Notes under the pieces: model-generated | What the model saw: only the letters and a program-made list of their open reading frames with translations | Told to the model about the DNA's origin: nothing | The model's database searches: none | Program-made: the position numbers and the translations under genes | Assembly: GCA_944350015.1 (NCBI GenBank) | Contig: CALVNW010000001.1 | Location: forward strand, 36,761-100,760 | Direction: 5' to 3' | Source of the DNA: an uncultured Clostridia bacterium | GTDB lineage: Bacteria > Bacillota > Clostridia > Christensenellales > UBA1242 | DNA length: 64,000 nucleotides | Shown here: one piece after another, positions 6,121-20,418 of the stretch | Numbering within the stretch: position 1 is the stretch's first letter | Layout of the letters: every line of letters begins with the position of its first letter

Positions 6121-6196
6121 GGTCTACTAGCTCAGTCGGTAGAGCACTTGACTTTTAATCAAGGGGTCCCGGGTTCGAATCCCGGGTAGGCCACCA
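6121..6196 (+). tRNA. tRNA-Lys(TTT), integration target of the mobile element
   Basis: Acceptor stem ggtctac/gtaggcc, anticodon stem cttga/tcaag with loop cTTTTaa, T-arm cccgggttcgaatcccggg, encoded CCA. Its 3' 45 nt are duplicated at 20274-20318. Confidence 0.92.
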
Positions 6197-6296
6197 AAAA
6201 ATTGCCCGTAAGGGCATTTTTTTGTTGCCCTGGGATTTGCTTGGACTCTGTCCAAGCGATTGCTCCGCAATCTTTAGCCCTGGGACGTCCCGGTCG
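6152..6296 (+). repeat. attL: 145-bp direct repeat (3' part of tRNA-Lys, terminator and GC-rich hairpins)
   Basis: 6152-6296 aligns base for base with 20274-20418 at a constant offset of 14122. There are only 3 mismatches (6247, 6248, 6269). The repeat begins in the anticodon loop of tRNA-Lys. Confidence 0.9.
6203..6223 (+). terminator. Rho-independent terminator after tRNA-Lys
   Basis: Stem tgccc / gggca with loop gtaa, followed by T7. An identical copy lies at 20325-20345. Confidence 0.7.
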
Positions 6297-6462
6297 AAAC
6301 TCCGCTTAGTTTACAAAAAATAAAAAAAATTTAGGAGTTTGGCCATTCGTCTTTCTTCCAAGCAAGATACTTTATATTGTGTGTTACGGTAGATATCATC
6401 ACTAAATATGCAGGTGGTGTTTTTTGTTAATAAAATTTTGCTAAAAATGTGGGGTCATTTCC

Positions 6463-7431
6463 TTAAAAAATGGGGTACAAATCGCCATATAAGTTTAATA
6501 TATCTTGCTTTGTGATGGTTGGGTCCAGGTGCGTGTAGATGTCATTTGTAACCACAATTGAGCTGTGCCCTAGATATTGCTTTCGAGCGTTATCATCGAC
6601 GCCTAAGTAGTAGAGGTTGGTAGCGAAGGTGTGCCTCAACATATGTGTAGAGCCTTTTATGCCTATTTTTTGAAAAAACTCTCTCATCTTAGCTTTGATT
6701 GTGTCGGCTTGACAGTTAAAGATTGGCTCCTGGTAGCTTAGTAATATTTGTTGATATTTGTCTGATATTTTTACCCATCTAATAGCATTGCTTGTTTTAG
6801 TTCCCTCTATTAGCACATAATTATTTTTGATATTTGATTTTTTGATGCTCTTTAGTTCGGATAACCTTGCGCCAAGCATAAGGTATGCCAAAATGTATTT
6901 AGAAACTGTATTGTTGCTTAAGTTGCTGAGGATGAGCTTTTGCTCCTCGATAGTAAAGCCAACACGTTTTTTTCGTTCCACTTTGCCTTTCACTAAAAAT
7001 TGGCTAACATCTTTTTTGACCAGGTCAAGTTCTAGAGCCTTTCTAAATATTTGCTTTAAAGTTTGGTATGCAAGCTCTTTGGTTCTTGTCTTGCCTTCAC
7101 TGTTTAGGTACTCTTGAAGTTTAGTTGTGGTTATCTCTACTAATTTGCCTTTTATATTTACAAGATGATGATTGACAATGTTGCTGTACACCTTAAAAGT
7201 ATCCTCACTTACTTCGGGTTTCTTGTATTTTTCTAGCCACAACTGCGCAAATCCAAAAAAGTTGACTATTGCGTGGCGCTCTTCAATTTTTGCATTTTTA
7301 AAAGACTGTTTAAGATTTTTAACTTTTTCATAACACTCTTTTTGCGTTTTTCCATAGACAGAATATCTCTGTCCGTTTAAACTAAGACGGCCTTCCCAGC
7401 GACCGTCTTTTCTTTTTCTAATTCCTTTCAT
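6463..7431 (-). CDS. int: Tyrosine recombinase (phage integrase family)
   Basis: ATG at 7431 preceded by ggaggagaaaaga. The N-terminus MKGIRKRKDGRWEGR is a typical arm-binding start. C-terminal catalytic residues are present (..GARLSEL.., HMLRHTFATNL, LGHSSIVVTNDIYTH). The longer ORF to 7611 starts at a TTG without an SD. Confidence 0.9.
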   Translation of the reverse strand: MKGIRKRKDGRWEGRLSLNGQRYSVYGKTQKECYEKVKNLKQSFKNAKIEERHAIVNFFGFAQLWLEKYKKPEVSEDTFKVYSNIVNHHLVNIKGKLVEITTTKLQEYLNSEGKTRTKELAYQTLKQIFRKALELDLVKKDVSQFLVKGKVERKKRVGFTIEEQKLILSNLSNNTVSKYILAYLMLGARLSELKSIKKSNIKNNYVLIEGTKTSNAIRWVKISDKYQQILLSYQEPIFNCQADTIKAKMREFFQKIGIKGSTHMLRHTFATNLYYLGVDDNARKQYLGHSSIVVTNDIYTHLDPTITKQDILNLYGDLYPIF

Positions 7432-7644
7432 CTTTTCTCCTCCTTGTTCAGGGGAAGAGAGATTTTTGCCATTAATTACTACGAAATTGTTGCGTTTAAA
7501 TTTATATATTTCTTCTTCAGCCTCGGAATAGCCGATAAGCACTAAAAGCTTTTTCCTTGCAAGCTGTGCATTATCAGCCGTGATTGTAGTAAGTGTTAAC
7601 AGCTCATCCAAAGTTTTTTATATTTTCCATTTTTAAAATTCCTT

Positions 7645-7989
7645 TTATTTAATTTTTTGTAATACTTCATCAATAGGCTTGTTTGCAAGCTTGGCTACAA
7701 AGCCTAAAGCAATTAACGTAGAATCATCATCCAAGTCTTTAATCAAATTGATAAGTTCCTTCTTTTTCTCTGACAAACTGTCAGCAAAAATTAGGTTTTT
7801 GTTTTGCCGGCCGCATAGGTAATCAAGGGATACGTCAAAGTAATCAGCGAGTGCGATTAATGTTTTAATATCAGGTTCCGCCACACCATATTCGTAACTT
7901 TGGTAAGTTGAACGAGCTATTGATAATTTGTTAGCGATATCACTTTGTTTGGCTTTATTTTCTTTTCTTAAAGTTTTTAGATTTAACAT
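7645..7989 (-). CDS. XRE/cI-type HTH repressor
   Basis: 114 aa with SD aggaggtagag. The HTH_3 pattern is QSDIANKLSIARSTYQSYEYGVAEPDIKTLIALADYFDVSLDYL. It is divergent from the rightward operon. Confidence 0.85.
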   Translation of the reverse strand: MLNLKTLRKENKAKQSDIANKLSIARSTYQSYEYGVAEPDIKTLIALADYFDVSLDYLCGRQNKNLIFADSLSEKKKELINLIKDLDDDSTLIALGFVAKLANKPIDEVLQKIK

Positions 7990-8031
7990 CTCTACCTCCT
8001 AATTTTATTTTAATATTTTTTATAAAAAAAC

Positions 8032-8106
8032 AAAAAACTTGGCAAAAATACTTGACAATGCCAAAAAATATGTGCTATATATCAAATATAAGCCAAAAAA
8101 CTTGGC
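8032..8106. promoter_or_regulatory. Divergent switch region with rightward promoter and TTGGC/GCCAA operator-like repeats
   Basis: TTGACA (8052-8057), an 18-nt spacer, then TGcTATATA (8073-8081). aaaaaacttggc occurs at 8032-8043 and 8095-8106. gccaaaaaa occurs at 8060-8068 and 8092-8100. Together these give inverted TTGGC/GCCAA pairs around the -35 and downstream of the -10. Confidence 0.6.
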
Positions 8107-8123
8107 TTAACAGGGAGGTAAAT

Positions 8124-8351
8124 ATGTCAAATTACAGAACAGTACTCGAAATTGCAGAACAAATTCCAATCAGTCGGGATGGAAGTGTTAAATTGCCGGG
8201 TGTTAAGAGGGTTTGGGAATTGCTTGATGGCATCGAGAATGTAACACTAGGGATGTATTTAAGCTATATGGTTGGATACTATGGAGAGCATAAGAGGGCA
8301 TTAAGAAGAGGCAAAATCAATATAAACATTCGCGATGTTGTTGGTGAATAA
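8124..8351 (+). CDS. Hypothetical protein in the Cro position (75 aa)
   Basis: ATG at 8124 preceded by agggagg. It is the first gene of the rightward transcript opposite the repressor. No motif recognised. Confidence 0.55.
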   Translation: MSNYRTVLEIAEQIPISRDGSVKLPGVKRVWELLDGIENVTLGMYLSYMVGYYGEHKRALRRGKININIRDVVGE

Positions 8352-8380
8352 AAAAAATCACCCCGAAGGGTGATTAAAAA
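8351..8380. terminator. Hairpin terminator between convergent genes
   Basis: Stem tcaccc / gggtga with loop cgaa, flanked by A7 on the left and ttaaaaa on the right. The T-run is strong on the minus strand. Confidence 0.65.
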
Positions 8381-8725
8381 CTACTTTTTCTTTTTGGGTT
8401 TAGATTTTGTAGTTTTTTGAGATTTGCTGGATGCTTGCCTATTTGCAATAGCAACTTGACTGTCATTCAATCCAGTTTTCTTAGTGTTGCCAGAGCCTAC
8501 ATTAACGGTGTTGTATCTTGTGGAGTTATCGACAGTTGGTTTCATAGATGTATTATAACGTTTTTGCCTATTTTCTCTAATTCCAACACTCTTTAAGTGT
8601 TTTTCTAGTTCTGCTTGTTCCTTTTTAGGACGTTTAACTTCATTTTTAATATCTTCAACTCTTTGCCTCTCAACATTCAGTTTCCCCGCATTTCTGTCTG
8701 CAATAAAGTTTTTTATAAATCCCAT
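8381..8725 (-). CDS. Hypothetical basic protein (114 aa)
   Basis: ATG at 8725 preceded by aaaggagagaaat. Lysine-rich C-terminus (..KSQKTTKSKPKKKK). No motif recognised. Confidence 0.55.
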   Translation of the reverse strand: MGFIKNFIADRNAGKLNVERQRVEDIKNEVKRPKKEQAELEKHLKSVGIRENRQKRYNTSMKPTVDNSTRYNTVNVGSGNTKKTGLNDSQVAIANRQASSKSQKTTKSKPKKKK

Positions 8726-8913
8726 ATTTCTCTCCTTTGTAAATTTTTGATAGCATAAAGTAATCGACATACTGTTTGGCTATCAAATTAGTATAACATA
8801 AAATTTGGGTTTTTTCATATTTTCGACAATATTTGCAAAATAGCCCTGATGAGTCTTTGTAAATTAAGACGAAACACTTTAAGGTGTCGGCTATACGCCA
8901 ATGGAGGTTAAAA

Positions 8914-9036
8914 ATGAATAGTATTAAAAAATACACACAATGGTGCAAGGATAACGGCTATAAACCGAGTGACGGGAAGGCTATACTTGCCTATGACATT
9001 TACAGAAACTTTAAGCCAAGAGGATTGTTAGGATGA
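8914..9036 (+). CDS. Small ORF (40 aa), hypothetical
   Basis: ATG at 8914 preceded by ggaggttaaaa. Translation MNSIKKYTQWCKDNGYKPSDGKAILAYDIYRNFKPRGLLG, followed by hairpin aagccaagag/ctcttggctt. It is below the 60-aa cutoff of the ORF track. Confidence 0.35.
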   Translation: MNSIKKYTQWCKDNGYKPSDGKAILAYDIYRNFKPRGLLG

Positions 9037-9185
9037 CAGCGTCATCTTCTCTTGGCTTTTATTGTGTGCGCTGGCGCGCTAACGGTCAAACGCAATCAGT
9101 ATTTACAAGAAATTTTGTAAACGCGATGAACGTTTACCTAAAAGCCAAGACAAAACACATTCAGCTAATTTATTTCCCGGCTTTC

Positions 9186-9213
9186 GGAAGCCAGGTGTCA
9201 AGTATTAGGAGGT
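9186..9213 (+). repeat. 28-bp leader repeat, copy 1 (ggaagccaggtgtcaagtattaggaggt)
   Basis: Identical 28-mer at 9186-9213 and 9487-9514. Each ends in the SD (aggagg) of the next gene. Confidence 0.85.
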
Positions 9214-9220
9214 AAGTGTT

Positions 9221-9481
9221 ATGACATTTAAATTTGCAAACAAAGATAAAGTTAGAAACTTGCAAGAGCAAATTTCTAAAAAGCAGATTAGCTTTATTGA
9301 ACTGCCTATAGATGTGCTTGCTGAACTGTTTCAATGTGCGATTGAAAGAATTGATGAAGATGAAAATACTGTCGAGTGTGATGAGCGAGATAGCGGAGAT
9401 TTGATATGGGATATGGAGTGTATAGTTGATGAACTATTTGACGCTCTTCAAGAAAAAGTCGATTTTGGTTTATACGAATAA
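9221..9481 (+). CDS. Hypothetical acidic protein (86 aa)
   Basis: ATG 7 nt after the repeat-borne SD. Strongly acidic (..DEDENTVECDERDSGD..). Confidence 0.6.
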   Translation: MTFKFANKDKVRNLQEQISKKQISFIELPIDVLAELFQCAIERIDEDENTVECDERDSGDLIWDMECIVDELFDALQEKVDFGLYE

Positions 9482-9486
9482 AAATT

Positions 9487-9514
9487 GGAAGCCAGGTGTC
9501 AAGTATTAGGAGGT
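9487..9514 (+). repeat. 28-bp leader repeat, copy 2
   Basis: See copy 1. It places the start of the next gene at ATG 9521 rather than at 9485. Confidence 0.85.
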
Positions 9515-9520
9515 GAAAAA

Positions 9521-9925
9521 ATGCTTTTAATAGGCAAAGAAGAGTTTATGAAAGAACTCGGAACGTCACAAGAAGAACAAGATGACTTAGTGCACTTAAC
9601 ATTTGAGACTTTTAAAAACATTAGAGTAGGAGATGTAGTTTATTTTGTTAATGACTGGAATTATTTTATAAAAGTGCCTTTCGTTGTAGATTATGCAAAA
9701 TGGTTTCCTTTAGAAGGTGAATACACAAAAAAAGGTAAACAGATTTACTACAAGCAAATATCGTTTGTTAGAGACTTTCATAAAAGATATGCAGATAGTG
9801 CTGGTCATACTTACAATAATTTATATGTCAAAAAGTCGATGTTTAATGAGTTATTAGAAAGAGGTGAAAATGGGATATTGGACAGCAGTGCCAAGCGCTA
9901 TATTAAGAACAAAAAGGTTAACTAA
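9521..9925 (+). CDS. Hypothetical protein (134 aa)
   Basis: ATG at 9521, 6 nt after the repeat-borne aggaggt. No motif recognised. Confidence 0.6.
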   Translation: MLLIGKEEFMKELGTSQEEQDDLVHLTFETFKNIRVGDVVYFVNDWNYFIKVPFVVDYAKWFPLEGEYTKKGKQIYYKQISFVRDFHKRYADSAGHTYNNLYVKKSMFNELLERGENGILDSSAKRYIKNKKVN

Positions 9926-10628
9926 TGACGAGAAGGTATTCTATTTTATCATATCAACGATTATCAATAAGCAGGAAGCTAAAAGATATTGCACTGATTC
10001 TAACTCTGAGCTTGCCAGGAAGATGAACATATCAGAGTCAACCGTTTCGCAAAGAATTTCAAAGCTCACTAAAAAACGATTTGCAAACGTTACTCCAAAT
10101 CCGCACAAAAATGAAAGGCGTATTTACTTACACGTTCCAGGACTCGAAGAGCCATTACCAACAAATGAAGAGATGGATGCAAGTATGACCAATTTAAAAG
10201 AATCTTTTAAGCAGGCAATCATATTTGGTAACGTTCCTTTTGAGGTTTTGGTTCAAAAACTGCTTGAGACAGATTATCTTGAGAACGTTCAAGACAATAA
10301 CACTCAATTTTGCTTAAGCCTAGAACAAATCGACTTTCTATCAGCTTTTCACAAACTGTGTCCTGGAAAGGCTATGGATGCTCAACTTACTTGCTATCCA
10401 AATATTGACTTGAGAAAGTTACTTAATGCCATACGCGAAAGCTCCTTCTTGCTTTTAAATGATAACCTCTCGCTTAAATGGCTACTCGAGCACGCGCAAG
10501 AGATATGCAACGGTAATTATAAAAGATATCTTGAAAACATAGAGGTAAAGCCTAACTTTCAAGAACGTAGTTATTCAAACGAGCAGCTCAACTCTTTATT
10601 CCAGGATATTGAAGGCTTAGACTTGTGA
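9870..10628 (+). CDS. HTH-domain replication initiator-like protein
   Basis: The N-terminus MGYWTAVPSAILRTKRLTNDEKVFYFIIS...NSELARKMNISESTVSQRISKLTKK follows the plasmid/phage Rep-type HTH_36 pattern (G.. .P..il.d..Ls...k.ly..l.s......c.ps...La..l..s.rtv.r.i.eL). SD agaggtg. It overlaps the upstream gene by 56 nt. Confidence 0.6.
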   Translation: MGYWTAVPSAILRTKRLTNDEKVFYFIISTIINKQEAKRYCTDSNSELARKMNISESTVSQRISKLTKKRFANVTPNPHKNERRIYLHVPGLEEPLPTNEEMDASMTNLKESFKQAIIFGNVPFEVLVQKLLETDYLENVQDNNTQFCLSLEQIDFLSAFHKLCPGKAMDAQLTCYPNIDLRKLLNAIRESSFLLLNDNLSLKWLLEHAQEICNGNYKRYLENIEVKPNFQERSYSNEQLNSLFQDIEGLDL

Positions 10629-10885: not shown

Positions 10886-11116
10886 ATGAAAGTTAAGACA
10901 ATAATAGCTACAATTTTAATTTTTATAGCAGTAGTAGCAGTTGGCTTTATGATTACTTCACTTTCGCTTGCAACTGAACACGGCAACACACTTACTGACG
11001 AGTGGAAGTCCTGGACAGCTGAGGAAACTCAAGAAGTAGAAGATGAAGAAAACTCAGAGACAGAATTAAACACAAATAACGTTGAAAACTACTCAGACAT
11101 TGAGATAGTTGCGTAG
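10886..11116 (+). CDS. Small membrane protein (76 aa): N-terminal TM helix and acidic tail
   Basis: ATG at 10886 after gggggaa. Translation MKVKTIIATILIFIAVVAVGFMITSLSLA followed by an E/D-rich tail. Confidence 0.6.
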   Translation: MKVKTIIATILIFIAVVAVGFMITSLSLATEHGNTLTDEWKSWTAEETQEVEDEENSETELNTNNVENYSDIEIVA

Positions 11117-11117
11117 T

Positions 11118-11201
11118 ATGAAAAAACTTGTTGTTTTTATAATTTTAATAGCAATTTTGTGTCCTGGACTCATCTCACTAATTATTGCTTTAATATTTTA
11201 G
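11118..11201 (+). CDS. 27-aa hydrophobic peptide (MKKLVVFIILIAILCPGLISLIIALIF)
   Basis: ATG one base after the upstream TAG (11114-11116), so translational coupling is possible. No SD. A single predicted TM helix. It is below the ORF-track cutoff. Confidence 0.35.
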   Translation: MKKLVVFIILIAILCPGLISLIIALIF

Positions 11202-11209: not shown

Positions 11210-12526
11210 ATGGCAAAATCTAAAAAATTAAACAGAGGTATTTTTATTGCATCGATAGTACTATTAGTGCTATGCGTTTGTTTTGATGTCTATTACTTGT
11301 ATTTTTCGATATTTGCAGATGACAAAAGAATTTTAGATGTTTTTGAGATAGGACAGATTGAAACTATAGAAGGAGACAAGTACAACGTCATAGAAGTTAA
11401 ATATTACACTAACGATAATAATAATGGTTATGAAATGTTTGAGGTAAAGTTTACTTCTATGTTAGACAGGAATAAAGAAGAAATTTACTCTCAAGGTTTA
11501 CAGTTTTTAGCAAAAGAAGTTAGTTCTTCATTAACCTGGTGGGATTATGAAGATTTTGCTACTACATTTGAGGACTATACCTCAGCTGATACTGGAGATA
11601 CGTCACTTGCAGAAGTTTATCAAAATGGAGTTACTACATACTTAAAAAAGAAGACAGGAGCACTCTTTTGGCAAACAAAATATTATGCAAGTTATATCAC
11701 GCCTCAAATAAACGATAAATATATGGTTAGCTATAACTATGCATCTACTGATAATTTTGTTACTTCTGTCGAGTCAACTACTTATCCACTAGAAGAAAAT
11801 CCGTCAATGCTAGTAAATATTGGTGAAGATGATTATTTAATTGAGCTAAGAGGAAACAATTACATTTCAGAAGCAGAAATAGCTGATGATATGAGCTACA
11901 TAGCTTATGATGGCAGTTCTGTAACAAGGCACAGATATTATCGTGATTATAACTACTACACTATGGCTTATGAACTCTTCAATGCCATACAATCATTACC
12001 AAATGGCACACAAGAAGAAATAATAATACCGTTTAGTGATGAATGGTTTGATTATTCAAGTTATAACGAAGAAGACAGCTCATATCACGAAATTACTGAT
12101 AGGCAAGAATATGCCAAAATTACTCGTGATATAAAAAATTATTATTCAATTAAAGTGACTAAGTCAGCGGATGGAGCTCAATATTACGGTGATAGCCTGT
12201 TCGGGAAAATGTTTAATAGTACCAATTTCAGTATAAGAAACGATATAGATTCAAGTGATTATTTTTATGGTAGACCTGTTATAGATTGCAATATTGAAAA
12301 TTTTCAATTTGTTGCCATAACCGATAACTATGTAGCGCTTAAATTGAAAGAGGATTTTATAGCAAGATATCTCCCATTGAAAGATTATATTTACATAAGA
12401 ATAAATTTAACATCTCAAGATTTTTTTAGCAGAGATGTAAGATTTGCGGGCTATTGCGGTGATTGTGGGCTAGAAGATTTTAATATTATAAATTCAGCTC
12501 TATATCCGTTTGAGGAGGTAGATTGA
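11210..12526 (+). CDS. Membrane-anchored extracellular protein (438 aa), hypothetical
   Basis: ATG at 11210 after aggaga. N-terminal anchor GIFIASIVLLVLCVCFDVYYLYFSIF. The remainder is N/Y/D/S-rich. Confidence 0.7.
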   Translation: MAKSKKLNRGIFIASIVLLVLCVCFDVYYLYFSIFADDKRILDVFEIGQIETIEGDKYNVIEVKYYTNDNNNGYEMFEVKFTSMLDRNKEEIYSQGLQFLAKEVSSSLTWWDYEDFATTFEDYTSADTGDTSLAEVYQNGVTTYLKKKTGALFWQTKYYASYITPQINDKYMVSYNYASTDNFVTSVESTTYPLEENPSMLVNIGEDDYLIELRGNNYISEAEIADDMSYIAYDGSSVTRHRYYRDYNYYTMAYELFNAIQSLPNGTQEEIIIPFSDEWFDYSSYNEEDSSYHEITDRQEYAKITRDIKNYYSIKVTKSADGAQYYGDSLFGKMFNSTNFSIRNDIDSSDYFYGRPVIDCNIENFQFVAITDNYVALKLKEDFIARYLPLKDYIYIRINLTSQDFFSRDVRFAGYCGDCGLEDFNIINSALYPFEEVD

Positions 12527-14043
12527 TGATAGGTTTATTATTTGATACTTCATTTTGGTATGATGTCATTACACTTATATTTATAGTTGCGTTGATTTAT
12601 ATCTTCTGTAAATATAAACAATCAAGAATTTATGTTTACTGGATATTTTTTGTGTTGGTGGTAGCTCTTACGGGATGTTGTGTAGTTCAATTAATTGGAT
12701 ATTACACTACATCTGGCAATCAATATGGAAATATTGATAATGATAAGCCAAATGAAATCGAACAGGTAAGTGAGTTCAGTTTTAATTTAAAGAATATTGT
12801 TTTAACCCAAGAATCTGGAGATAAGTATTCGGCCAATATGACAGCCAATGTATCATTAGATTTGACGCCTAATAGTGATTATGGGTTATATGTAAACGAT
12901 ATAACTTGCAATGATATTGTTTACTCTGTTGACTACATCACGGGAAAATATACTTATAATTTTTATGATAACGCAAATAAATTATTAAAAAGTGACACTT
13001 TAACTTTAAGTTTAGCGTTTAATAAAACATATATGAGCTTGACGCTCTCTACAAGTGGTGGCGCAGAAGCTGTTAGATACTGGAATAACTACTTCAATAA
13101 AAACAACTTTGTTGTTGAAATAAAAGAGCAAGAAGAATTAAATTCAGACACTATATACGGTGAAGGTGACATATCAAACTTTAGAACAGCAAAGTTTTAT
13201 GTTAATGAACAGCTTTATAGGACCTATGTTTATGAACTTGGAGATAAAATAGTTGACCCACAATATATTGACCCTACATATCATCTAGATTACTGGACCT
13301 GCAACGGAGAACGTGTTGATTTCACTAATTTTATATGTAACGACAACTATGTCTTTGAGGCCGTGCTAATAACCAATGAGAGACATACAGTGGATATATA
13401 TTTGTCAACAGATGGGACTGCAGATGGAATAATAGACGCTGGGAATTTTTATGTAACTGATACAATGTATATTGATACGAAAGGTAACGGAACTAACCAT
13501 TTGACTATTGAAGGACAAAGTGACAAAGAAGTTATAGTTGATTTCAAAGTCGCCAGCGCTTTTGAAAATTTTGATTGGCAGGTGCAAGTAGAAACCTTAA
13601 GTGATGGGAATATACAAGTAAATAAAAGAAGTACCTATTCTACTGATTTAATGAGTACGGGATTTGCTTATGGCGGAGATATTGTAATAGAAGGACTTAC
13701 TGCAGATGCTAATATTTATGTTACTGTTAAACCTGTAGAATATAAGCTTGAAATATATTATAGCTTTCAATCAACATTTTTAGTAGATGATTTTACATTT
13801 ACATATGGAAGTACTTTCAATTTAAAAGAACATTTGACCGCTGAGCAGTTAACACTACTAACTGGCATTGAAGGGTTATATACAGTGCAAACTCATTCAG
13901 GTACAAAGTATTTTGATTCGAACTTAGAGATGTTAACAAGTTGGATTAGCCTGCCTTTAAAATGGACAGGGTATAACTATGTGTACGTGGACAATTTCAA
14001 TGAAATTACAAATACGTTTACTTTGTATGCTTTTTATGGATAA
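12526..14043 (+). CDS. Membrane protein with large extracellular domain (505 aa), hypothetical
   Basis: ATG overlaps the upstream stop (TGATG), with SD gaggagg 8 nt upstream. Two N-terminal TM helices are followed by a beta-rich N/Y/T-rich domain. Confidence 0.7.
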   Translation: MIGLLFDTSFWYDVITLIFIVALIYIFCKYKQSRIYVYWIFFVLVVALTGCCVVQLIGYYTTSGNQYGNIDNDKPNEIEQVSEFSFNLKNIVLTQESGDKYSANMTANVSLDLTPNSDYGLYVNDITCNDIVYSVDYITGKYTYNFYDNANKLLKSDTLTLSLAFNKTYMSLTLSTSGGAEAVRYWNNYFNKNNFVVEIKEQEELNSDTIYGEGDISNFRTAKFYVNEQLYRTYVYELGDKIVDPQYIDPTYHLDYWTCNGERVDFTNFICNDNYVFEAVLITNERHTVDIYLSTDGTADGIIDAGNFYVTDTMYIDTKGNGTNHLTIEGQSDKEVIVDFKVASAFENFDWQVQVETLSDGNIQVNKRSTYSTDLMSTGFAYGGDIVIEGLTADANIYVTVKPVEYKLEIYYSFQSTFLVDDFTFTYGSTFNLKEHLTAEQLTLLTGIEGLYTVQTHSGTKYFDSNLEMLTSWISLPLKWTGYNYVYVDNFNEITNTFTLYAFYG

Positions 14044-14055
14044 AAAGGAGTAAAT

Positions 14056-15495
14056 ATGAAAAAATTTAAATCAATATTAAAAGCCGTTGCTATTATTTTA
14101 GGTATTTCAATCCTACTTTTAGGCACAGCATTTGGTATTACATACGCCATTGATAAGGACCTGGCTTTGTCCTGGATAGGCATAGAGAAAGAAACTTCTG
14201 ATACAGAAGAACCAGATACTCCAGAGGAACCAGAAGAACCAGGAGAAGATGAAGAGCCAGAGAAGAAGCCTGATGAATCAGAATATGTAACAAACATAGT
14301 TGATTACGAGATTAAAGGGGATACTATTACAGCTTATACCGGCGCGGATAAGTATATAAAAATACCTACTTCATATTCTATTTCAGGAACAGAAGAAGTT
14401 AAATTATCTTTTGAAACCCAATTTGATTTAACAGACTATATAATGTTAAATCACGACACTATAAACTATCCTATTACAGTTACTGACAGTGAAAGCCAAG
14501 ATTATGAATTTTTCAGTGAATTTGAAATAATCGAAAATGAAGAGATGCTTTATCCAGTAACTTACACTACAGAAAAAACTATTTATACTGAAGGCAACGA
14601 TTATCAGATTACAAAAATTGATAGGGATATTTTGAGTGATAGCTCTGTTGAATATGTGATAGTACCAAATGGGATAACTGAAGTTGATGCATCTTTTCGT
14701 AGTTGTGACACATTAAAGGAAGTTCAACTTTCTGAAACAGTTACAAAGATAGGTAGCCAAACTTTCGTTAGCTGTGGAAACCTAGTTGCTATAAATGTAG
14801 ATGAGAATAATGAAAATTATTTAAGCGAAGATGGCGTGTTATTTAACAAAGACAAGACTAAATTAGAGTACTTCCCAGCGGGTAAAGGTGGGACCTATAC
14901 CATACCAAATACAGTTACTGAAATTCAAACTCTAGCATTTTATCAATGTGGCAAGTTAGAAAACATATATTTCGAAAGCGGTATAAACCTTGAGACCATC
15001 CCAGGTCTAGCTTTTGCGTTTTGTACTAATTTAACAAGCATTGAAATACCTGCTAGTGTCACCTATTTAGACTTTCAAGCTTTTAATAATTGTACGAGCT
15101 TAGAAACTGTAGCTTTTGAAAAAAATAGTTTGCTAGAAAGTTTTGACACGGCTGTATTTTCAGATTGTACTAACTTAAAAACAATAGATTTAGCCTTGTT
15201 GAAAAATCTTTCAAGTATAGGCAATAATGTTTTTGGAAATTGTTCTTCTCTAGAAACGATAATTTTGCCAGCAAGTGTAACAAGTATAGGATTAAATTGT
15301 TTCACGTCTATTAAGTCAATCACATTAAAATCGGCTACACCGGCTACTTTAGGTGTCCTATCACCTTTTTCATCAACAATTGAAGCGATTTACGTACCAG
15401 AAAGTGCGGTGGATACATATAAGACTGCTGACGGCTGGAGCAATTATGCAAATATTATACAAGCAATACCAGAACAAGCATTGGAGATGAAGTAG
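14056..15495 (+). CDS. Surface protein with BspA-type leucine-rich repeats
   Basis: SD aaggag. N-terminal anchor AVAIILGISILLLGTAFGI, then an acidic P/E linker (EEPDTPEEPEEPGEDEEPEKKPDESE). Repeated units follow of the type I(P).VT.I...AF..C..L..I (e.g. TVTEIQTLAFYQCGKLENIYF, IPGLAFAFCTNLTSIEIPASVTYLDFQAFNNCTSLETV), typical of the LRR_5/BspA family. Confidence 0.8.
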   Translation: MKKFKSILKAVAIILGISILLLGTAFGITYAIDKDLALSWIGIEKETSDTEEPDTPEEPEEPGEDEEPEKKPDESEYVTNIVDYEIKGDTITAYTGADKYIKIPTSYSISGTEEVKLSFETQFDLTDYIMLNHDTINYPITVTDSESQDYEFFSEFEIIENEEMLYPVTYTTEKTIYTEGNDYQITKIDRDILSDSSVEYVIVPNGITEVDASFRSCDTLKEVQLSETVTKIGSQTFVSCGNLVAINVDENNENYLSEDGVLFNKDKTKLEYFPAGKGGTYTIPNTVTEIQTLAFYQCGKLENIYFESGINLETIPGLAFAFCTNLTSIEIPASVTYLDFQAFNNCTSLETVAFEKNSLLESFDTAVFSDCTNLKTIDLALLKNLSSIGNNVFGNCSSLETIILPASVTSIGLNCFTSIKSITLKSATPATLGVLSPFSSTIEAIYVPESAVDTYKTADGWSNYANIIQAIPEQALEMK

Positions 15496-15502: not shown

Positions 15503-16024
15503 ATGAAAAAACTATATTTTTTAAAGAGTTTGGCTGTGATTATGTTTCTAACAGCTTTATCAATAGTTTTAGGATTTATATGCATTGAAGAAAAATTAAC
15601 AGCTCATAACCTGCCTTACAAGGCTCCATTATTTCAAAGCATAGATTATGACATAACTAGGCCATCAAATATTAGTTTTACTTCTTTAAAAGATGAAGTA
15701 GACAAACTATTTGATAGTCCTAGTTATACTCTAGAGATAAAGGACCTTGAAGGCACCGTGAAAGGCAAGTGTGAGATGTTTAAGAGAAATATAATACTTG
15801 ATAATAACTTAAGCTACGAATACTTTGCCTTTTGCCTTGCTCACGAGCTAACACATTTAACCGAGTTTTGTTATAGCGAGAGATATATCAATTTAACAGC
15901 TTTTAATAAACTTTATTCAAGCGGAAACGAATATCTAACGAATGTTGCACTATACTTTGCAGACTTAGACCTTCGAGGAGCGTTTTCGCAAGAATATAGT
16001 TTTGTGGGATACATTGAAATTTAA
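15503..16024 (+). CDS. Membrane-anchored putative Zn-metallopeptidase (HExxH)
   Basis: N-terminal TM helix (LAVIMFLTALSIVLGFICI). It has ..NIILDNNLSYEYFAFCLAHELTHL.. with an HELTH motif in the context seen in minimal gluzincin/SprT-like peptidases. Confidence 0.5.
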   Translation: MKKLYFLKSLAVIMFLTALSIVLGFICIEEKLTAHNLPYKAPLFQSIDYDITRPSNISFTSLKDEVDKLFDSPSYTLEIKDLEGTVKGKCEMFKRNIILDNNLSYEYFAFCLAHELTHLTEFCYSERYINLTAFNKLYSSGNEYLTNVALYFADLDLRGAFSQEYSFVGYIEI

Positions 16025-16071: not shown

Positions 16072-16314
16072 ATGAAAAAAGCACAAAAAACAACCAAAAC
16101 AACTAAATCAATTGAAAAATCGGGCGTAAATAGCCCTAGAACGGCCGTAAAGGCCAAGTCGACTAATAAGTCGACACCAAAGGCTAAAACCGCCCACAAG
16201 TCAAATGACAAGGGCAATTTTTCGAAAAGTCAAACTAAAAAGACTACAAACGCGAAAAAAGCCCCAGCAAGCAAGCGAAAAGTAAAAGCGATTACTCTTT
16301 ACTATGATTTGTAG
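16072..16314 (+). CDS. Lysine-rich, low-complexity basic protein (80 aa)
   Basis: SD gaggga. Roughly a quarter of residues are K (KKAQKTTKTTKS..KAKSTNKSTPKAKTAHKS..KKTTNAKKAPASKRKVK), histone-H1-like in composition. Confidence 0.6.
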   Translation: MKKAQKTTKTTKSIEKSGVNSPRTAVKAKSTNKSTPKAKTAHKSNDKGNFSKSQTKKTTNAKKAPASKRKVKAITLYYDL

Positions 16315-16323
16315 GAGAATGCA

Positions 16324-16770
16324 ATGTCCAAGACAAAGAATATTTCAAAAAAAGTTCCAAACGGCAGAACCTTACAAACTAGAGACGAGTATCTGGGTAG
16401 TGGAAAAGGTAAAAAAAACATTAAACCAGAGCATCCAAACCCAAATGACCTATATAGAAGAGTTACAGTTATTGATAGCAATATCCAAAATGAACTTGCA
16501 ATAATAAAATTAGGGACCAAAGGACGCCATTCATTAAAAAAATATTTGACCGGAAAAAGTAAATATAACGCATATATTGAAATTGAGGATAATAACGGAA
16601 ATAGGATAAAAATCGATGGAGTTAGGTTCGTTGAAAATTCTAGCAAAAGAGATATTAGCAAAGAAGATGTTACAGAAATGAAAAAATATGCACTTAAAAG
16701 CAAAGAGACATCGTCACGATTAAGAAATGATAATAAACAAATTTTACATAAATTAAAAAATAGAAAATAA
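16324..16770 (+). CDS. Basic protein (148 aa), hypothetical
   Basis: SD aggaga. K/R-rich at both ends with a central beta-like core (YRRVTVIDSNIQNELAIIKLGTKGRH). Confidence 0.6.
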   Translation: MSKTKNISKKVPNGRTLQTRDEYLGSGKGKKNIKPEHPNPNDLYRRVTVIDSNIQNELAIIKLGTKGRHSLKKYLTGKSKYNAYIEIEDNNGNRIKIDGVRFVENSSKRDISKEDVTEMKKYALKSKETSSRLRNDNKQILHKLKNRK

Positions 16771-16950
16771 AAAAAGAACTCAGTTACCCGAGTTCAACAT
16801 CCTGTAATGAGCGTCCTCATCCAGCCTCAAGGCATTTCAGCCAAGTTGACTATAAGAGCGACTTATAATCAAAAATCAATCAAGTTGATTCACTAATATT
16901 ATATCACAAAAATTTAAAAATGCAACAAAAATTTAGAAAAAAAGGTAAAA

Positions 16951-17985
16951 ATGTTATTTAAAAAGCATAAAAAAGAATTTTTAAACTACAAAGGCCGGCG
17001 TTTGCCTGTCTATGACAAAATCGAGGATATGTTTGAAGATGGTATATTTTCACCGACAGAAGTCGTAGTAATTTGGGGTAAACGTAGAACAGGAAAAAGC
17101 TCTCTTGCTGGTAAATTTATGTCAGAGTTTATGCGCCCAGACATAGCTAGACGTGACGTAGATACATCTAGAAGTATTTGTGACAAGCTCAACGAAGCCG
17201 GCTACGTCATAAGACCGCCAAGCGACCATACTGTCTTTTGTGATACCTACTTCGAAACTAAAGGCTTTATGCGAAAGAATAACTCTGCATACAAGTTTAA
17301 CGGCGTAGGTTTTGGTCTCCCAAACGAAATACATACCACTTCATTACTTTGCCCTTGTGGACGATATTTTCTTGATGAGACACAAGATTTGTTTGACTCA
17401 CACCTAGGAGCTTTACCAACCTTTATAACCAAAGCGATAGAACTTTCAGGACAGTATAAGCTATTTTTATGCTTTATAGCCCAGCGTCCAAAACGCCTTC
17501 ATATAGATATCAGAGATTTGGCTATATTTATTGAAGTTGTAGAGCTACGTAACGTATATAACAAATATAACACACTTCTTGCTACTTACTGGATATGTAA
17601 CATCATTTATGACAATGCGGTACTAGAGACCTATCTTTCAAATAAGGACCCAAATTTAATTGATAAAACTGTAGTATTTAAATACAAAGGTAATATCTTT
17701 AACTGTTATGACAGTAACTACTTTATCCCAATGTTCGTACGTGGAAAGGAAAACGAGGGGCTAGTACTCGAGAAAACCACTAGGACACAGTTTTCTGTTG
17801 AATATTTTAAAGAATACTTCAAAAACCGTGTGATTGACATTCCAGAAACTTTTAGAGGTAAAAAGCCGAAAGAAAAACCTAAAAAAGAAGAAAAGCCTAA
17901 AAAAGAAGAAAAACAAGAAGAAAAAATTAAAGAGGACAAGCTAAATAAACAGGAGAAAAATGGAAACAGAAAAGAGTCTGCGTGA
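16951..17985 (+). CDS. Zot/pI-like P-loop NTPase with K/E-rich tail
   Basis: Walker A is VVVIWGKRRTGKSSLA and Walker B is GRYFLDETQDLF. The segment ..SGQYKLFLCFIAQRPKRLHIDIRDLAIFIEVVEL follows, arranged like filamentous-phage pI/Zot (LVLDECGTWF...KLGWDIIFLVQDLSIVDKQARSALAEHVV). No TM helix. The C-terminal 50 aa are KPKKEEK repeats. Confidence 0.5.
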   Translation: MLFKKHKKEFLNYKGRRLPVYDKIEDMFEDGIFSPTEVVVIWGKRRTGKSSLAGKFMSEFMRPDIARRDVDTSRSICDKLNEAGYVIRPPSDHTVFCDTYFETKGFMRKNNSAYKFNGVGFGLPNEIHTTSLLCPCGRYFLDETQDLFDSHLGALPTFITKAIELSGQYKLFLCFIAQRPKRLHIDIRDLAIFIEVVELRNVYNKYNTLLATYWICNIIYDNAVLETYLSNKDPNLIDKTVVFKYKGNIFNCYDSNYFIPMFVRGKENEGLVLEKTTRTQFSVEYFKEYFKNRVIDIPETFRGKKPKEKPKKEEKPKKEEKQEEKIKEDKLNKQEKNGNRKESA

Positions 17986-18421
17986 ATATGAAGAACTACG
18001 CACGGTAGATGATTATGTGAATGCATATTCTACGATATCAGAGATAGCTAGCAACTTTAGCGGAGCAAGTCAAGAAGTTGAAGATTGCTTTGGAGAGATA
18101 CTTTTGACGCTTACAAAGAGTTTTAAGAAGAAGTATGAGTATATTGACAAAATGTCCAGGAAGTGGCGCCGAAAACAAGGTATATTCTCAAAATTTAGAG
18201 ACTATCTAGCCGAACGTCAAGAGAAGAAGGTTCTTGAGCAAAGGCTAGAAAACGAGCGATTGCAAGCAAAGATACGCGAGCTTATGACTCAGCCACAGAA
18301 GTCCGACCAGACAGAGAGTGTCTCTTCTCCAGCCAGCGAAGCTGTAGTGCTAAGCGAAGCTGAGCACAAACCTATCGAAGTGGTAAACGAAGATAATGAA
18401 TCTGCTGTGCTAGATTTTTGA
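17960..18421 (+). CDS. Hypothetical coiled-coil protein (153 aa)
   Basis: SD aggaga. It overlaps the previous gene by 26 nt. The central segment is heptad-like (RQEKKVLEQRLENERLQAKIRELM). Confidence 0.6.
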   Translation: METEKSLREYEELRTVDDYVNAYSTISEIASNFSGASQEVEDCFGEILLTLTKSFKKKYEYIDKMSRKWRRKQGIFSKFRDYLAERQEKKVLEQRLENERLQAKIRELMTQPQKSDQTESVSSPASEAVVLSEAEHKPIEVVNEDNESAVLDF

Positions 18422-18515
18422 AATTATCAAAAAAATTATGCAAGCAAATGAGAAAGCATAACGCCGAAAGCGAGAGCGGGCGTTTGCGACATTTGCTAAA
18501 TAATTTTGATAATTC
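18420..18515. other. 96-nt imperfect long hairpin in an intergenic region of the element
   Basis: The arms gaaattatcaaaaaaattatgcaagcaaatg (18420-18450) and catttgctaaataattttgataattc (18490-18515) pair over about 24 bp with bulges. They enclose a nested GC hairpin aacgcc..ggcgtt. An A/T-only tract follows at 18600-18690. Confidence 0.6.
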
Positions 18516-18693
18516 AAAATCACAGCAGATGATATTGGTACAGTTTATTTATAAATAAATCCACTTTATACAAAATTCGTCAGAATTTTGTGTTTGCGTA
18601 TACGCAATTTTGACATTAATTTTAATTTTTTTAAATTTTTTCAAAATTTTTTTAAAATCAATTTAAATTTTAAAAATCAAAATCGAGGAGAAA

Positions 18694-18876
18694 ATGAACA
18701 AGACGCCTAAAGAAATGGTAATAGAAATCCTTAATAAAGGACAGATAAGCCAGCAGGAACTAGCCGAGAGAATCGGAGTGTCGCCGGCGCAAATTACGCG
18801 CTGGCTTGCCTCGGCACAGCCAAAGCTTAAGCATTTCCAAAAACTTGAACAAATTTACCAGGAACTTGCTGTCTAA
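18694..18876 (+). CDS. Small HTH (XRE-like) DNA-binding protein
   Basis: SD gaggag. HTH segment ISQQELAERIGVSPAQITRWL. Confidence 0.65.
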   Translation: MNKTPKEMVIEILNKGQISQQELAERIGVSPAQITRWLASAQPKLKHFQKLEQIYQELAV

Positions 18877-18916
18877 AATGCGCTGTAATTGATTTTTGAA
18901 AAAGGAAGGTAGACCT

Positions 18917-19513
18917 ATGAAAAAAATATTAGTATTATTTGAAACATCTGGAGCCGTAAGTATTCCCTTTAGAGAGGCTGGGTTTGAAGTCACCACTATA
19001 GATATATTGCCGCACAGAGTTGATAATGAGCATCATATTCAGTACGATATACGTAATCTAAATGATTTAAATTTAGATTATAGTCAATATTCTTTTCTAA
19101 TAGCGTTCCCACCTTGCACATATTTTTCTAAAGCGGGATTACATTATTTACAGTCTCAGCCTGGCCGCAAAGAATTGCAACTGCGCGATTTAGAGATGGT
19201 CAAAAAGCTTTGGAATCTTCCAATAAAGAAAAAATGCTTCGAAAATCCTGCTGGTAGCGCTTTAAATAAACTTTGGCAAAGACACAACTGTCGTATCGAT
19301 TACTGCGAATTTGCAGACTTTAAAAAGCTTACAGATTTATGGTTAGATGGGTTACCGCCATTAATACCGGTGCAATGCAACTACAAAAAATATGGCAAAT
19401 TTATATCAAAGATGAGGTATGGCGATTATAGACGCTGTATCACACCAATTGAAGTAGGTTATGCTATGGTTAATCAATGGGGAAGTATTATAGGAGGCGA
19501 AAATGGGACTTAG
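18917..19513 (+). CDS. Miniature C5-cytosine-methyltransferase-like protein (198 aa)
   Basis: ATG at 18917 after aaggaagg. The motif-I-like segment is ILVLFETSGAVSIPFREAGFEV, the motif-IV-like segment is IAFPPCTYFSKAG (catalytic PC) and the motif-VI-like segment is CFENPAGS. No room for a normal target-recognition domain. Confidence 0.45.
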   Translation: MKKILVLFETSGAVSIPFREAGFEVTTIDILPHRVDNEHHIQYDIRNLNDLNLDYSQYSFLIAFPPCTYFSKAGLHYLQSQPGRKELQLRDLEMVKKLWNLPIKKKCFENPAGSALNKLWQRHNCRIDYCEFADFKKLTDLWLDGLPPLIPVQCNYKKYGKFISKMRYGDYRRCITPIEVGYAMVNQWGSIIGGENGT

Positions 19514-19760
19514 TGTGTGGAATCAAGTAGATAATAACAAATACTTTAGCATATCATCAGTAGATAGGGTTATTTTGAGACAAAAAGGTATAGATATCCC
19601 TTTAGCTGAGTTTAAAGAGATAGTCAGACGTGCGCCACCATTTGCGGTTATAACCACAGGTTCAGAGCTTATCACCGGGCGAACAAGACGCACCAAAATC
19701 TATCGCTATGAAGATTTTGACTATCTTAAAAACAAGATAGCAGGGGGTGATGCGATGTAA
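19503..19760 (+). CDS. Hypothetical protein (85 aa)
   Basis: SD ggaggcgaaa. Overlaps the previous gene by 11 nt. Followed by terminator hairpin aggcata..tatgcct and T7 (19826-19850). Confidence 0.55.
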   Translation: MGLSVWNQVDNNKYFSISSVDRVILRQKGIDIPLAEFKEIVRRAPPFAVITTGSELITGRTRRTKIYRYEDFDYLKNKIAGGDAM

Positions 19761-20273
19761 ATATCTAAAAAAATACACTATTTTCTCATAATTCATTAAA
19801 AATTTATATCAAAAAGGCGAATTTTGAGGCATACTCAAGGTTATGCCTTTTTTTATTTTATATATCCTTATCAAAATTCTAATAGAGGTCTATTAGAATT
19901 TTAATAGACCTAAAGAAAAGAAGCAAAAGAAATTATCCTCATATTTATATCTAAAGTATATACTTTTTATATTCTAGAGAAAAATACTAGTTTAATATAC
20001 TATATATAATATAATATATGTATTTAAAATAATGTTTGCGCAAATGCGGATTTATTTTAAAAGCGACTATCGTCGCGCTGTGAAGGTGAAAGTATCTACA
20101 GCTTAAACCTAGTCTCTCCGATTAAGCCCAGCTCATATTAAAAAAGGCGACATTTCTGTCGCCTGGCTATAAAGAAGAGTATACAAATTTAAAAAATGAT
20201 TGGGGTATAAAAAAATGGTCAAAAATCGCTCTAGCCCTTTATTTATATGGTCAATAGTAGTTGATGGGTCAGC

Positions 20274-20418
20274 CTTTTAATCAAGGGGTCCCGGGTTCGA
20301 ATCCCGGGTAGGCCACCAAAAAATTGCCCGTAAGGGCATTTTTTTGTTGCCCTGGGATTTGCTTGGACGATGTCCAAGCGATTGCTCCGCGATCTTTAGC
20401 CCTGGGACGTCCCGGTCG
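20274..20418 (+). repeat. attR: second copy of the 145-bp repeat (contains a non-functional 3' tRNA-Lys fragment)
   Basis: 142 of 145 positions identical to 6152-6296. The sequence 5' of 20274 cannot form the acceptor or D arms of a tRNA. Confidence 0.9.

Follow-up and report, generated by a model that had tools for sequence, protein, structure and literature searches.

We report an integrated genetic element in a 64,000-nt stretch of DNA (the window, at its full length) from an uncultured Clostridia bacterium (Christensenellales; UBA1242; assembly GCA_944350015.1, contig CALVNW010000001.1, positions 36,761-100,760 of the forward strand); all element coordinates count from window position 1. 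The element, inserted into the 3′ half of a tRNA-Lys gene by a tyrosine integrase, is probably an excision-competent, non-lytic virus-like prophage of gut Clostridia that depends on a Zot-type ATPase and has neither tail nor capsid. Its most likely home is the broad group of Firmicutes elements with Zot/pI ATPases ("inovirus-like," Tubulavirales-type), and among the published elements it fits in as a larger relative with atypical traits. Of the new points from our analysis, the most useful are a covarying hairpin and the near-absence of the element's family from reference collections.

The element's sole NTPase is a 344-aa protein that is followed directly by a conserved partner gene:

16951..17985, + strand: stand-alone P-loop ATPase assigned to the Zot/pI superfamily, 344 aa, no transmembrane domain (TMD), lysine/glutamate-rich tail; the family marker (profiles, fold match)
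17960..18421, + strand: p153, conserved partner gene directly 3′ of the ATPase (synteny)

The description of this ATPase as Zot/pI-like in an earlier, sequence-only reading of the window (the original prediction) is borne out by several lines of evidence. It has 54 homologues at 44-95% identity, and a profile search among 1.84 billion representatives recovered 278 clusters at 50% identity, mostly of 260-300 aa, which are essentially unnamed and absent from phage reference sets. Pfam Zot (PF05707) is matched by 53 of 71 members of the wider family (best 3e-12). Against the PDB, the wider-family profile finds the N-domain of Neisseria Zot (2r2a) at 1.1e-15, followed by KaiC (1e-4) and STIV B204 (4e-4); overall, other P-loop types (STIV B204, KaiC, and RecA, all of related P-loop clades) also score significantly but more weakly, at 1e-4 to 1e-3 versus 1e-15 for Zot. 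The same profile matches M13 pI (hmmsearch 6e-6, hhalign probability 93.7%) and ORF8 of Propionibacterium phage B5 (2e-4; hhalign 81%). Searches of PDB sequences with the single ATPase sequence or the close-family profile returned no match; the wider profile alone succeeded. An AlphaFold model of the protein (pLDDT 84.8) has Zot 2r2a as its best PDB fold match (Foldseek, 6.6e-8), with the packaging ATPase B204 and RecA/KaiC next, and its best named matches in BFVD are "Zonular occludens toxin [Inoviridae sp.]." By transitive homology, an indirect but strong argument drawn from these sequence and model comparisons, we place the window ATPase in the Zot/pI superfamily. Matches to the TerL or VirB4/TraG families, which would speak against the original prediction, were looked for, and the ATPase is none of these.

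Collections of mobile elements contain few relatives. A tblastn search of all phage records with the ATPase gave one match, the "Zonula occludens toxin" of Bajarodino virus 12 (9e-8), and PLSDB (72,556 plasmids) gave none. In IMG/VR, one relative was found with the close ATPase profile and no match with a Bajarodino-type profile.

The ends of the element are defined by a direct repeat that begins within a tRNA gene:

6121..6196, + strand: tRNA-Lys(ttt) gene, the integration target (ARAGORN; Rfam tRNA 73 bits)
6152..6306, unstranded: attL repeat copy, whose first ~51 nt (6152-6202) are the attP identity segment, or core (repeat alignment; the attP of contig L024 retains only 6152-6202)
6203..6363, unstranded: extra attL segment with a host-like tRNA-Lys terminator and downstream sequence (not in the attP of the 98%-identical L024)
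6463..7611, − strand: tyrosine integrase, open reading frame (ORF) as listed (Pfam Phage_integrase 6.9e-14; phrog_1 2.9e-47; adjoins attL)
20274..20428, unstranded: attR repeat copy, equal to what the host originally had there: the 3′ half of tRNA-Lys, the terminator, and the sequence downstream (repeat alignment; comparison with L024)

Six tRNA genes are clustered at 5523-6196, tRNA-Lys(ttt) being the last (ARAGORN). The repeat starts at 6152, in the anticodon loop (with the anticodon taken at tRNA position 34), and from there on the 3′ half of the tRNA at attL is supplied by the element. Pairwise alignment of 6152-6317 with 20274-20439 gives 93% identity over 166 nt and is near-perfect, with 3 mismatches, over ~155 nt (6152-6306/20274-20428). 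The start of the repeats in the anticodon loop and the integrase beside attL, both claimed originally, are confirmed by ARAGORN, alignment, and the Phage_integrase match; the repeat itself is real, and the 145 bp first given for it was slightly short. The true start of the integrase is probably the internal Met of MKGIRK, near 7431. The flanking genes are housekeeping genes, encoding DnaE and PfkA upstream and a metallo-beta-lactamase (MBL)-fold hydrolase and iPGM downstream, so the element is chromosomal. European Nucleotide Archive (ENA) scaffolds of 64 and 350 kb carry the same prophage at the same site.

The repeat measures 155 nt instead of 51 nt because attL holds an extra 161 nt (6203-6363) that have no counterpart in L024. 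This segment duplicates, with slight divergence, the terminator of the host tRNA-Lys and the region downstream of it. It may have been left behind when an earlier host was exited imprecisely, or by recombination with the target region.

Evidence of excision, without which the original prediction would have been refuted, comes from three independent assemblies (L024, L002, and L003) that hold the joined-ends (attP) form. L024 is a 13,057-nt Logan contig from SRR14630072, 95-98% identical to the window element, with the gene order circularly permuted. It fuses window position 20324 directly to 6364, giving a P arm, the 51-nt core that equals the tRNA-Lys 3′ half, and a P′ arm beside the integrase. 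L002 and L003 represent a sister element, whose ATPase is 85% and integrase 35% identical to those of the window element and which was assembled twice, as a 14,154-nt contig (L002, 113x coverage) and as a 14,132-nt scaffold from another project (L003). In both, the right end is connected to the integrase via the attP region. From the coordinates of the fetched parts, which exclude the last 1.8-2.3 kb of each record, we infer terminal self-overlaps of 77 and 55 nt, with which both contigs reduce to a 14,077-bp circle. The sister-element attP region (L002 4430-4802) contains a reverse-complemented tRNA 3′ fragment, which appears Tyr-like from our reading of the anticodon loop, flanked by repeated AAAGTTCGTCAAA motifs. 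In L002, AAAGTTCGTCAAA occurs five times, on both sides of the tRNA fragment; these copies are probable arm-type integrase sites. Near-identical and sister copies of the element thus carry the attP junction expected of a circular 13.7-14.1-kb form, and a canonical att site, a direct repeat in a tRNA gene, was found together with attP junctions in L024 and L002/L003.

The ORFs listed in the original prediction are present, and profile scans covered 20 ORFs against Pfam and PHROGs and ten ORFs against NCBIfam. They returned no match to a terminase, portal, capsid, tail, tape-measure, holin, or endolysin protein, in agreement with the absence of all but tail proteins asserted in the original prediction, and no match to a relaxase, VirB4, or VirD4/coupling protein. 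A megablast search with the whole element against 50,697 phage genomes also gave no match. We therefore rejected a Caudoviricetes prophage, as there was no terminase, portal, HK97-fold capsid, or tail match and no phage megablast match.

Directly after the p153 stop codon lies a conserved secondary structure:

18420..18516, + strand: imperfect hairpin of ~95 nt, directly after the p153 stop codon (DNA fold z -4.7; covariance model matches; compensatory changes)

The equivalent region in six relatives folds with z of -4.9 to -7.4, though the arm sequences differ, and most copies have a loop motif near GAAAGCGA-AGC. A covariance model built from six copies matches at the same position in 10 relatives, recovering L006, L011, L012, L013, and L024 and, weakly, L016 and L017, and it is strongly strand-specific (108 vs 21 bits). 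Within an 11-sequence alignment, which is model-fitted and so inflates the pairing figures somewhat, pairing extends to 95.7% of cells, and both partners have changed in 25 of 30 pairs; slid-partner controls give 37-46% of cells and 5-8 pairs. No T-run stands behind the hairpin, and no Rfam family corresponds to it. In Ff phages, the packaging signal is a long imperfect hairpin in the intergenic region just after the morphogenesis genes. The hairpin at 18420-18516, placed likewise, recalls that signal, and we consider it a candidate for packaging or for a single-strand origin; it might instead function as an RNA element or as a cruciform that binds protein.

Downstream of the hairpin (18560-18693) are two short conserved palindromes, ACAAAATTCGTCAGAATTTTGT and TTGCGTATACGCAA, whose hairpins stay paired in a 7-sequence fold alignment, the first with compensatory changes. 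They are followed by ~70 nt of almost pure A/T that extends to 18693, just upstream of the gene for a small helix-turn-helix (HTH) protein, HTH60. The palindromes and the A/T tract may form an operator, promoter, or origin-like region. A hairpin also occurs in Bajarodino virus 12 (L001) at ~1536-1638, downstream of the genes for Zot and a 229-aa protein; it is GC-rich, ~103 nt long, and near-perfect (z -7.3), in a position analogous to that of the window hairpin and unrelated to it in sequence. A suspected likeness between p153 and the 229-aa protein was rejected, since comparison shows no similarity.

The remaining genes comprise a control region at the left and a long rightward array that closes with a terminator at 19826-19849:

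7645..7989, − strand: XRE/cI-type repressor, 114 aa (HTH_3 1.5e-13; phrog_8 7.8e-21)
8031..8109, unstranded: divergent control region with operator-like sites (two copies of the 13-nt repeat CAAAAAACTTGGC plus palindrome TAAGCCAAGTTTTTTGGCTTA)
8052..8351, + strand: protein of 99 aa at the position of Cro (51% conservation in sister elements)
8381..8770, − strand: lysine-rich 129-aa protein (own terminator 8375-8356)
9186..9514, + strand: gene cassette p86 (9221-9481) between perfect 28-nt direct repeats (not in L024)
9864..10628, + strand: winged-helix (DnaD_N/HTH_36-like) putative replication initiator or organizer, 254 aa, core (phrog_19658 1.6e-9; phrog_186 3.6e-7)
10886..11116, + strand: 76-aa protein with a single transmembrane (TM) segment and acidic C terminus, positionally conserved; candidate coat or membrane protein (gene order in relatives; TM scan)
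11118..11201, + strand: 27-aa all-hydrophobic mini-ORF (equivalents at the same position in several relatives)
11210..12526, + strand: m455, 438 aa, one N-terminal TM anchor, family core, no known domain (TM scan; profile searches)
12523..14043, + strand: m506, two N-terminal TM helices and an all-beta multi-domain ectodomain, core (AF2 pLDDT 62.7)
14056..15495, + strand: membrane-anchored BspA-type leucine-rich-repeat (LRR) protein, 479 aa, variable accessory (Pfam LRR_5 5e-38)
15503..16024, + strand: 173-aa N-anchored protein with an HExxH motif, variable (weak metallopeptidase-like matches; DUF6782 1.6e-3, below cut-off)
16072..16770, + strand: basic proteins K80 (23 Lys+Arg in 80 residues) and b148 (36 Lys+Arg in 148), variable (composition)
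18694..18876, + strand: XRE-type HTH protein (HTH60), 60 aa, core (HTH_3 1.7e-9)
18896..19513, + strand: short DNA methyltransferase-like protein, accessory (phrog_757 1.1e-35; Pfam DNA_methylase 2.5e-3, below cut-off)
19503..19760, + strand: p85, conserved last gene before attR (terminator 19826-19849 follows)

The proposed lysogeny module was recovered: integrase, XRE repressor, and operator-like repeats in the divergent region, where CAAAAAACTTGGC lies at 8031 and 8094 and the palindrome at 8089-8109. When all element proteins were compared with 23 loci by tblastn, a syntenic core emerged that consists of the integrase, repressor, winged-helix (wHTH) protein, small TM protein, m455, m506, ATPase, p153, HTH60, and p85. 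The LRR, HExxH, K80, b148, methyltransferase-like, p86, and p146 genes are variable. Core synteny is kept across related contigs from several projects, and all 17 loci from genome collections (17/17) belong to uncultured Clostridia, Eubacteriales, or Firmicutes gut assemblies. An antisense ORF at 16302-16703 was rejected as a gene; it overlaps K80 and b148 on the sense strand, which have homologues in relatives.

The part of the claimed gene order that runs from small TM proteins through large membrane-anchored proteins to the ATPase stands. The "replication initiator" placed at its head is seen only as an N-terminal winged helix, with DnaD_N and HTH_36 below Pfam cut-offs, and profiles of this protein, p85, and m455 gave generic wHTH matches or none against the PDB or Pfam. 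Relatives encode a 65-115-aa single-TM protein upstream of m455, often with a basic N terminus and usually with an acidic C terminus, and several have a 20-30-aa all-hydrophobic mini-ORF after it. The 76-aa and 27-aa ORFs of the window thus have the features sought in nearby structural proteins, which are short (30-90 aa) with a single TMD; this is a match of features only, and the small TM proteins resemble inoviral coat proteins in size and position only. A PHROG scan at E<=1 found no credible coat, holin, or single-stranded DNA (ssDNA)-binding protein family among the small TM and basic proteins.

The large membrane proteins are similarly isolated. No Pfam or PDB relatives were found for m455, and neither m455 nor m506 has a tblastn match among the 50,697 phages. 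Both keep N-terminal TM anchors, which is atypical for capsomers. Foldseek searches with the m506 model returned only weak local likeness to Gram-positive adhesins or pilins (TM-score 0.12-0.14). Among the ORFs at 11210-15495, for which matches to tailed-phage or type IV secretion system (T4SS) components would count against the original prediction, the m506 model showed none, a weak test given its low confidence. The LRR protein is a candidate receptor-binding or surface protein, and K80 and b148 are candidate DNA-binding or DNA-condensing proteins.

Two further observations concern the accessory genes and the neighborhood of the element. The 28-nt repeats around p86 (9186-9213 and 9487-9514) each end in an AGGAGGT ribosome-binding site, p86 itself is an acidic 86-aa protein, and the otherwise 98%-identical L024 lacks exactly this 273-nt cassette, which suggests that recombination between the repeats added or removed the gene. 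An uninterrupted 6617-aa ORF (24371-44224, + strand), ~4 kb downstream of the element, has a signal peptide of the lipoprotein type (…LLTAC), a single hydrophobic segment at the N terminus, and an S/G/N/T-rich composition; neither half matches Pfam, and it appears to encode a giant orphan surface protein.

Elements with pI-like genes and integrases directed at tRNA genes are pervasive, and apart from pI their families have little in common (Roux et al. 2019; PMC6813254). The "Clade-1" circular genomes from the gut are 5.6-9.4 kb long, targeted by Clostridiales CRISPR spacers, absent from viral databases, and missed by VirSorter; they encode a stand-alone Zot domain, as do all Firmicutes-targeted gut inovirus-like genomes of that study (Sugimoto et al. 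2021; PMC8530359). They share with the window element an origin in the human or animal gut, Firmicutes/Clostridiales hosts, low GC content, and a stand-alone Zot without the fused C-terminal part of M13, and one member also has a tyrosine recombinase and a match to a tRNA locus. Unlike the window element, which we could compare with them by description only, Clade-1 genomes were recognized via hidden Markov models (HMMs) for major coat proteins of Inoviridae and via Rep genes. The window element is larger (14 kb), has no coat homologue that we could find, and encodes a wHTH initiator-like protein, three 440-505-aa membrane proteins, basic proteins, and a methyltransferase-like protein.

Inovirus prophages of Enterocloster and Hungatella are secreted, and DNase-protected DNA and 6-10-nm filaments have been shown for them experimentally; most are 6.5-8.5 kb, one is predicted at 16 kb, and HHpred assigned inovirus functions to 60-80% of their ORFs (Burckhardt et al. 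2023; PMC10061712). These too are prophages of gut Clostridia with flanking direct repeats, and they were found by their pI-like gene. By contrast, only the ATPase is recognizable in the window element, which was compared with them by description. The original claim of a poorly described virus type for a cell-walled, low-GC host was overstated, because both the stand-alone-Zot Clostridiales genomes (PMC8530359) and the secreted Enterocloster inoviruses (PMC10061712) are published.

Bajarodino virus 12 (PQ006185.1), a 9.8-kb circular genome from rodent faeces, is filed under Inoviridae by annotation only, and no literature turned up under the name "bajarodino." Among GenBank phage records, the ATPase matches this one alone, at 2.8e-82 with the family profile. 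The two genomes have in common a circular form, an integrase and repressor on the opposite strand, and large N-anchored proteins, and Bajarodino virus 12 has a lysine-rich tail upstream of its 266-aa Zot, which lacks a TMD, and, on the downstream side of the Zot module, a hairpin of ~100 nt, as in the window element. It differs in size, in its higher GC content, and in the lack of detectable protein similarity beyond the ATPase, integrase, and repressor.

With the Ff phages (M13/fd), the element shares a homologous ATPase core, which hhalign aligns over the Walker B and sensor region, and the order of small hydrophobic proteins, large membrane protein, and ATPase. Several features of M13 were not found in the window element: the TMD and periplasmic domain of pI, the secretin pIV, the HUH Rep pII, the ssDNA-binding pV, and a third-codon T fraction of 0.50. 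M13 is also non-integrating and, at 6.4 kb, smaller. Larger elements with pI-like ATPases, the IME1 elements of Dehalococcoides, have been proposed to be non-lytic viruses, possibly with double-stranded DNA (dsDNA), that bud or form filaments (Nesbo et al. 2026 preprint; 10.64898/2026.09.15.751708). Like the window element, IME1 is integrated or episomal, is free of tailed-phage hallmarks, and encodes a pI-like ATPase beside TM and signal-peptide proteins, a tyrosine recombinase, and a lambda-like repressor. It differs, in a comparison by description only, in its size (21-28 kb), its restriction to Chloroflexota, and its primase-helicase and serine resolvase.

We propose the following course for a prophage of the kind we favor. 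After de-repression, the circle would replicate from an origin organized by the wHTH protein, and the membrane proteins would insert into the cytoplasmic membrane. The soluble Zot-type ATPase may then power assembly of the genome and its extrusion (or budding) through a membrane patch without lysis, with the hairpin at 18420-18516 serving as a strand-specific packaging or single-strand-origin signal. We speculate that the LRR protein and the protein with the beta-rich ectodomain serve in adsorption and that the lysine-rich proteins neutralize DNA charge.

Several observations weigh against this reading and against a classical inovirus. The window ATPase on its own misses Pfam Zot and has a weak match to the PHROG "Zot-like toxin" (1.6e-3), so its membership is transitive. 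One or two TMDs, N- or C-terminal, were required of a genuine pI by Roux et al. (2019; PMC6813254), and a Kyte-Doolittle scan (19 residues, threshold 1.6) found a TMD in none of 34 close members (0/34) and borderline peaks, located at the P-loop strand, in two of 71 distant ones; the family therefore lacks one mark of a genuine pI, a trait it has in common with the stand-alone-Zot genomes of Firmicutes. Searches of Pfam, PHROGs, NCBIfam, and PDB profiles, which remote homologues could escape, gave neither a HUH/Rep_trans rolling-circle replication (RCR) initiator nor an ssDNA-binding protein, and no small or large membrane protein matched a coat family in Pfam or PHROGs. The third-codon T excess is absent. 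With T3 of 0.36 and A3 of 0.35, the element lies near host genes and the dsDNA plasmavirus L2, whereas M13 has 0.50/0.19 and B5 is also T-rich. Bajarodino virus 12 likewise has no such bias, and the result is weak evidence because a mostly lysogenic life could erase it. At 14 kb, the genome exceeds most inoviruses, the methyltransferase-like gene is in keeping with a dsDNA way of life, the presence of three very basic proteins is unlike a textbook inovirus, the m506 model is of low confidence, and our searches found no particle data. The permuted contigs could come from tandem prophage arrays instead of free circles, although we consider such arrays less likely than excision to a circle as the source of the attP junctions. 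Two exact-pattern scans of JGI metagenomes did not find an empty attB, and all contigs with the flanking MBL-hydrolase gene were either prophage-bearing or broken near the repeat. On the specific question of an ssDNA filament the hints conflict, the strand-specific covarying hairpin speaking for it and the missing T3 bias against it. The original prediction is supported in part. Its inovirus-like label holds broadly; a strict ssDNA inovirus is not supported, given the missing TMD, HUH Rep, coat homologue, and codon bias.

Much of this evidence would suit a dsDNA virus with a membrane-vesicle or pleomorphic particle that leaves by budding, functionally like L2, pleolipoviruses, or IME1 and not an ssDNA filament. 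The particle of such a virus would start as a bud whose surface bears N-anchored spike-like proteins, and the stand-alone Zot-type ATPase would fill it with a circle of dsDNA that the lysine-rich proteins have condensed. The missing RCR Rep fits, a wHTH/DnaD-like initiator being typical of dsDNA replicons, as do the methyltransferase-like gene, the three very basic proteins, the L2-like composition without ssDNA-type T3 bias, and the soluble ATPase, whose second-best folds are the packaging ATPases of membrane-containing viruses (STIV2 B204, A32-like); IME1 (10.64898/2026.09.15.751708) is an earlier case of larger, putatively dsDNA elements with pI-like ATPases. Nevertheless, we think this explanation unlikely. 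The Zot matches exceed the packaging-ATPase matches by many orders of magnitude. The long strand-specific hairpin better suits an ssDNA signal, and the Clostridia host is presumably walled, a setting in which enveloped budding through the wall has little precedent. A membrane-containing icosahedral, tail-less virus of the Tectiviridae or Corticoviridae type would be expected to have a jelly-roll major capsid protein and an A32/P9-type packaging ATPase; the window ATPase matches Zot far better than B204 or A32, and the TM anchors of m455 and m506 would be unusual in capsomers, with an m506 model of low confidence.

L2, one functional parallel for budding, is an integrating phage with a circular genome of ~12 kb, envelope or membrane proteins, a P-loop protein (ORF3), and similar base composition; its host is a wall-less Mollicute, unlike the presumably walled host of the window element. 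Profiles of six element proteins found no significant homology among all L2 ORFs, the best being ORF3 (E 0.15; hhalign 21%), so that membership in the Plasmaviridae was rejected and the plasmavirus alternative of the original prediction gains no support from homology. ORF3 of L2 (L035, 2278-3216) has a Walker A motif, PGGGKS, and its motifs come in the order of the Zot-family profile across an alignment of 134 columns, at that low probability; L2 may use a distant Zot-like NTPase, a hint and not evidence.

It is also conceivable, though we rate it as quite improbable, that the element belongs to a family of non-autonomous excisable islands, either satellites or defective remnants, whose membrane and LRR proteins remodel the cell surface and whose transfer depends on a helper or does not occur. 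Consistent with such an island, no coat protein is recognizable, the LRR/BspA and adhesin-like proteins resemble ordinary Gram-positive surface proteins, every long host contig bears the element at the same site with no empty site found, and the family is nearly missing from viral collections, with one IMG/VR contig and one GenBank phage record. A helper for a satellite-type life could not be identified. The integrase and repressor are also present in satellites of the phage-inducible chromosomal island type, but the conserved module of membrane proteins and Zot ATPase argues for the element's own morphogenesis. Synteny of the ATPase with its conserved neighbors down to ~45% ATPase identity, combined with integrases that have different tRNA targets, points to selection on a complete transmissible module. 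The sister contig is permuted across attP, has the size of a complete circle, and was assembled at 113x coverage, and the database entry of the related Bajarodino virus 12 gives it as a viral genome from faeces that is circular and complete.

A small integrative conjugative or mobilizable element with the P-loop protein as its DNA-transfer ATPase, which the integrase, repressor, initiator-like protein, membrane proteins, and single ATPase superficially recall through their likeness to minimal Firmicutes transfer modules, is very improbable and was rejected: the scans found no relaxase, VirB4, VirD4/TcpA or other coupling protein, VirB6, or cell-wall hydrolase, and the ATPase is Zot-like, only ~300 aa, and unmatched among the 72,556 plasmids.

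A bolder view of the same data would set the element and its relatives apart from the classical ssDNA Tubulavirales, as a distinct lineage of viruses that infect Gram-positive bacteria of the gut without lysis. We regard this as doubtful, and equally so its mechanistic corollary, in which a soluble Zot-type ATPase, N-anchored spike-like proteins, and lysine-rich condensers would export a non-RCR, possibly dsDNA, genome of 10-14 kb through a walled envelope. If true, the lineage would parallel, as a bacterial counterpart, what has been proposed for IME1 of Dehalococcoides, namely viruses that bud or extrude, and the covarying hairpin of ~95 nt would represent a packaging signal of a new type.

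Whichever particle it forms, the prophage we favor here belongs to a conserved and widely distributed family, with members in gut assemblies of human, mouse, rabbit, and rodent origin. The non-lytic phages that infect gut Firmicutes, filamentous ones among them, have hardly been characterized and escape standard virus callers; attP polymerase chain reaction (PCR), hairpin probes, and ATPase HMMs provide handles for finding, inducing, and tracking such phages. The atypical traits of the element (double size, no RCR Rep, a TMD-less ATPase, and basic proteins) make it a good test case for the boundary of "inovirus," and they also touch on the question of whether bacterial viruses that have dsDNA or leave by budding use Zot-type ATPases.

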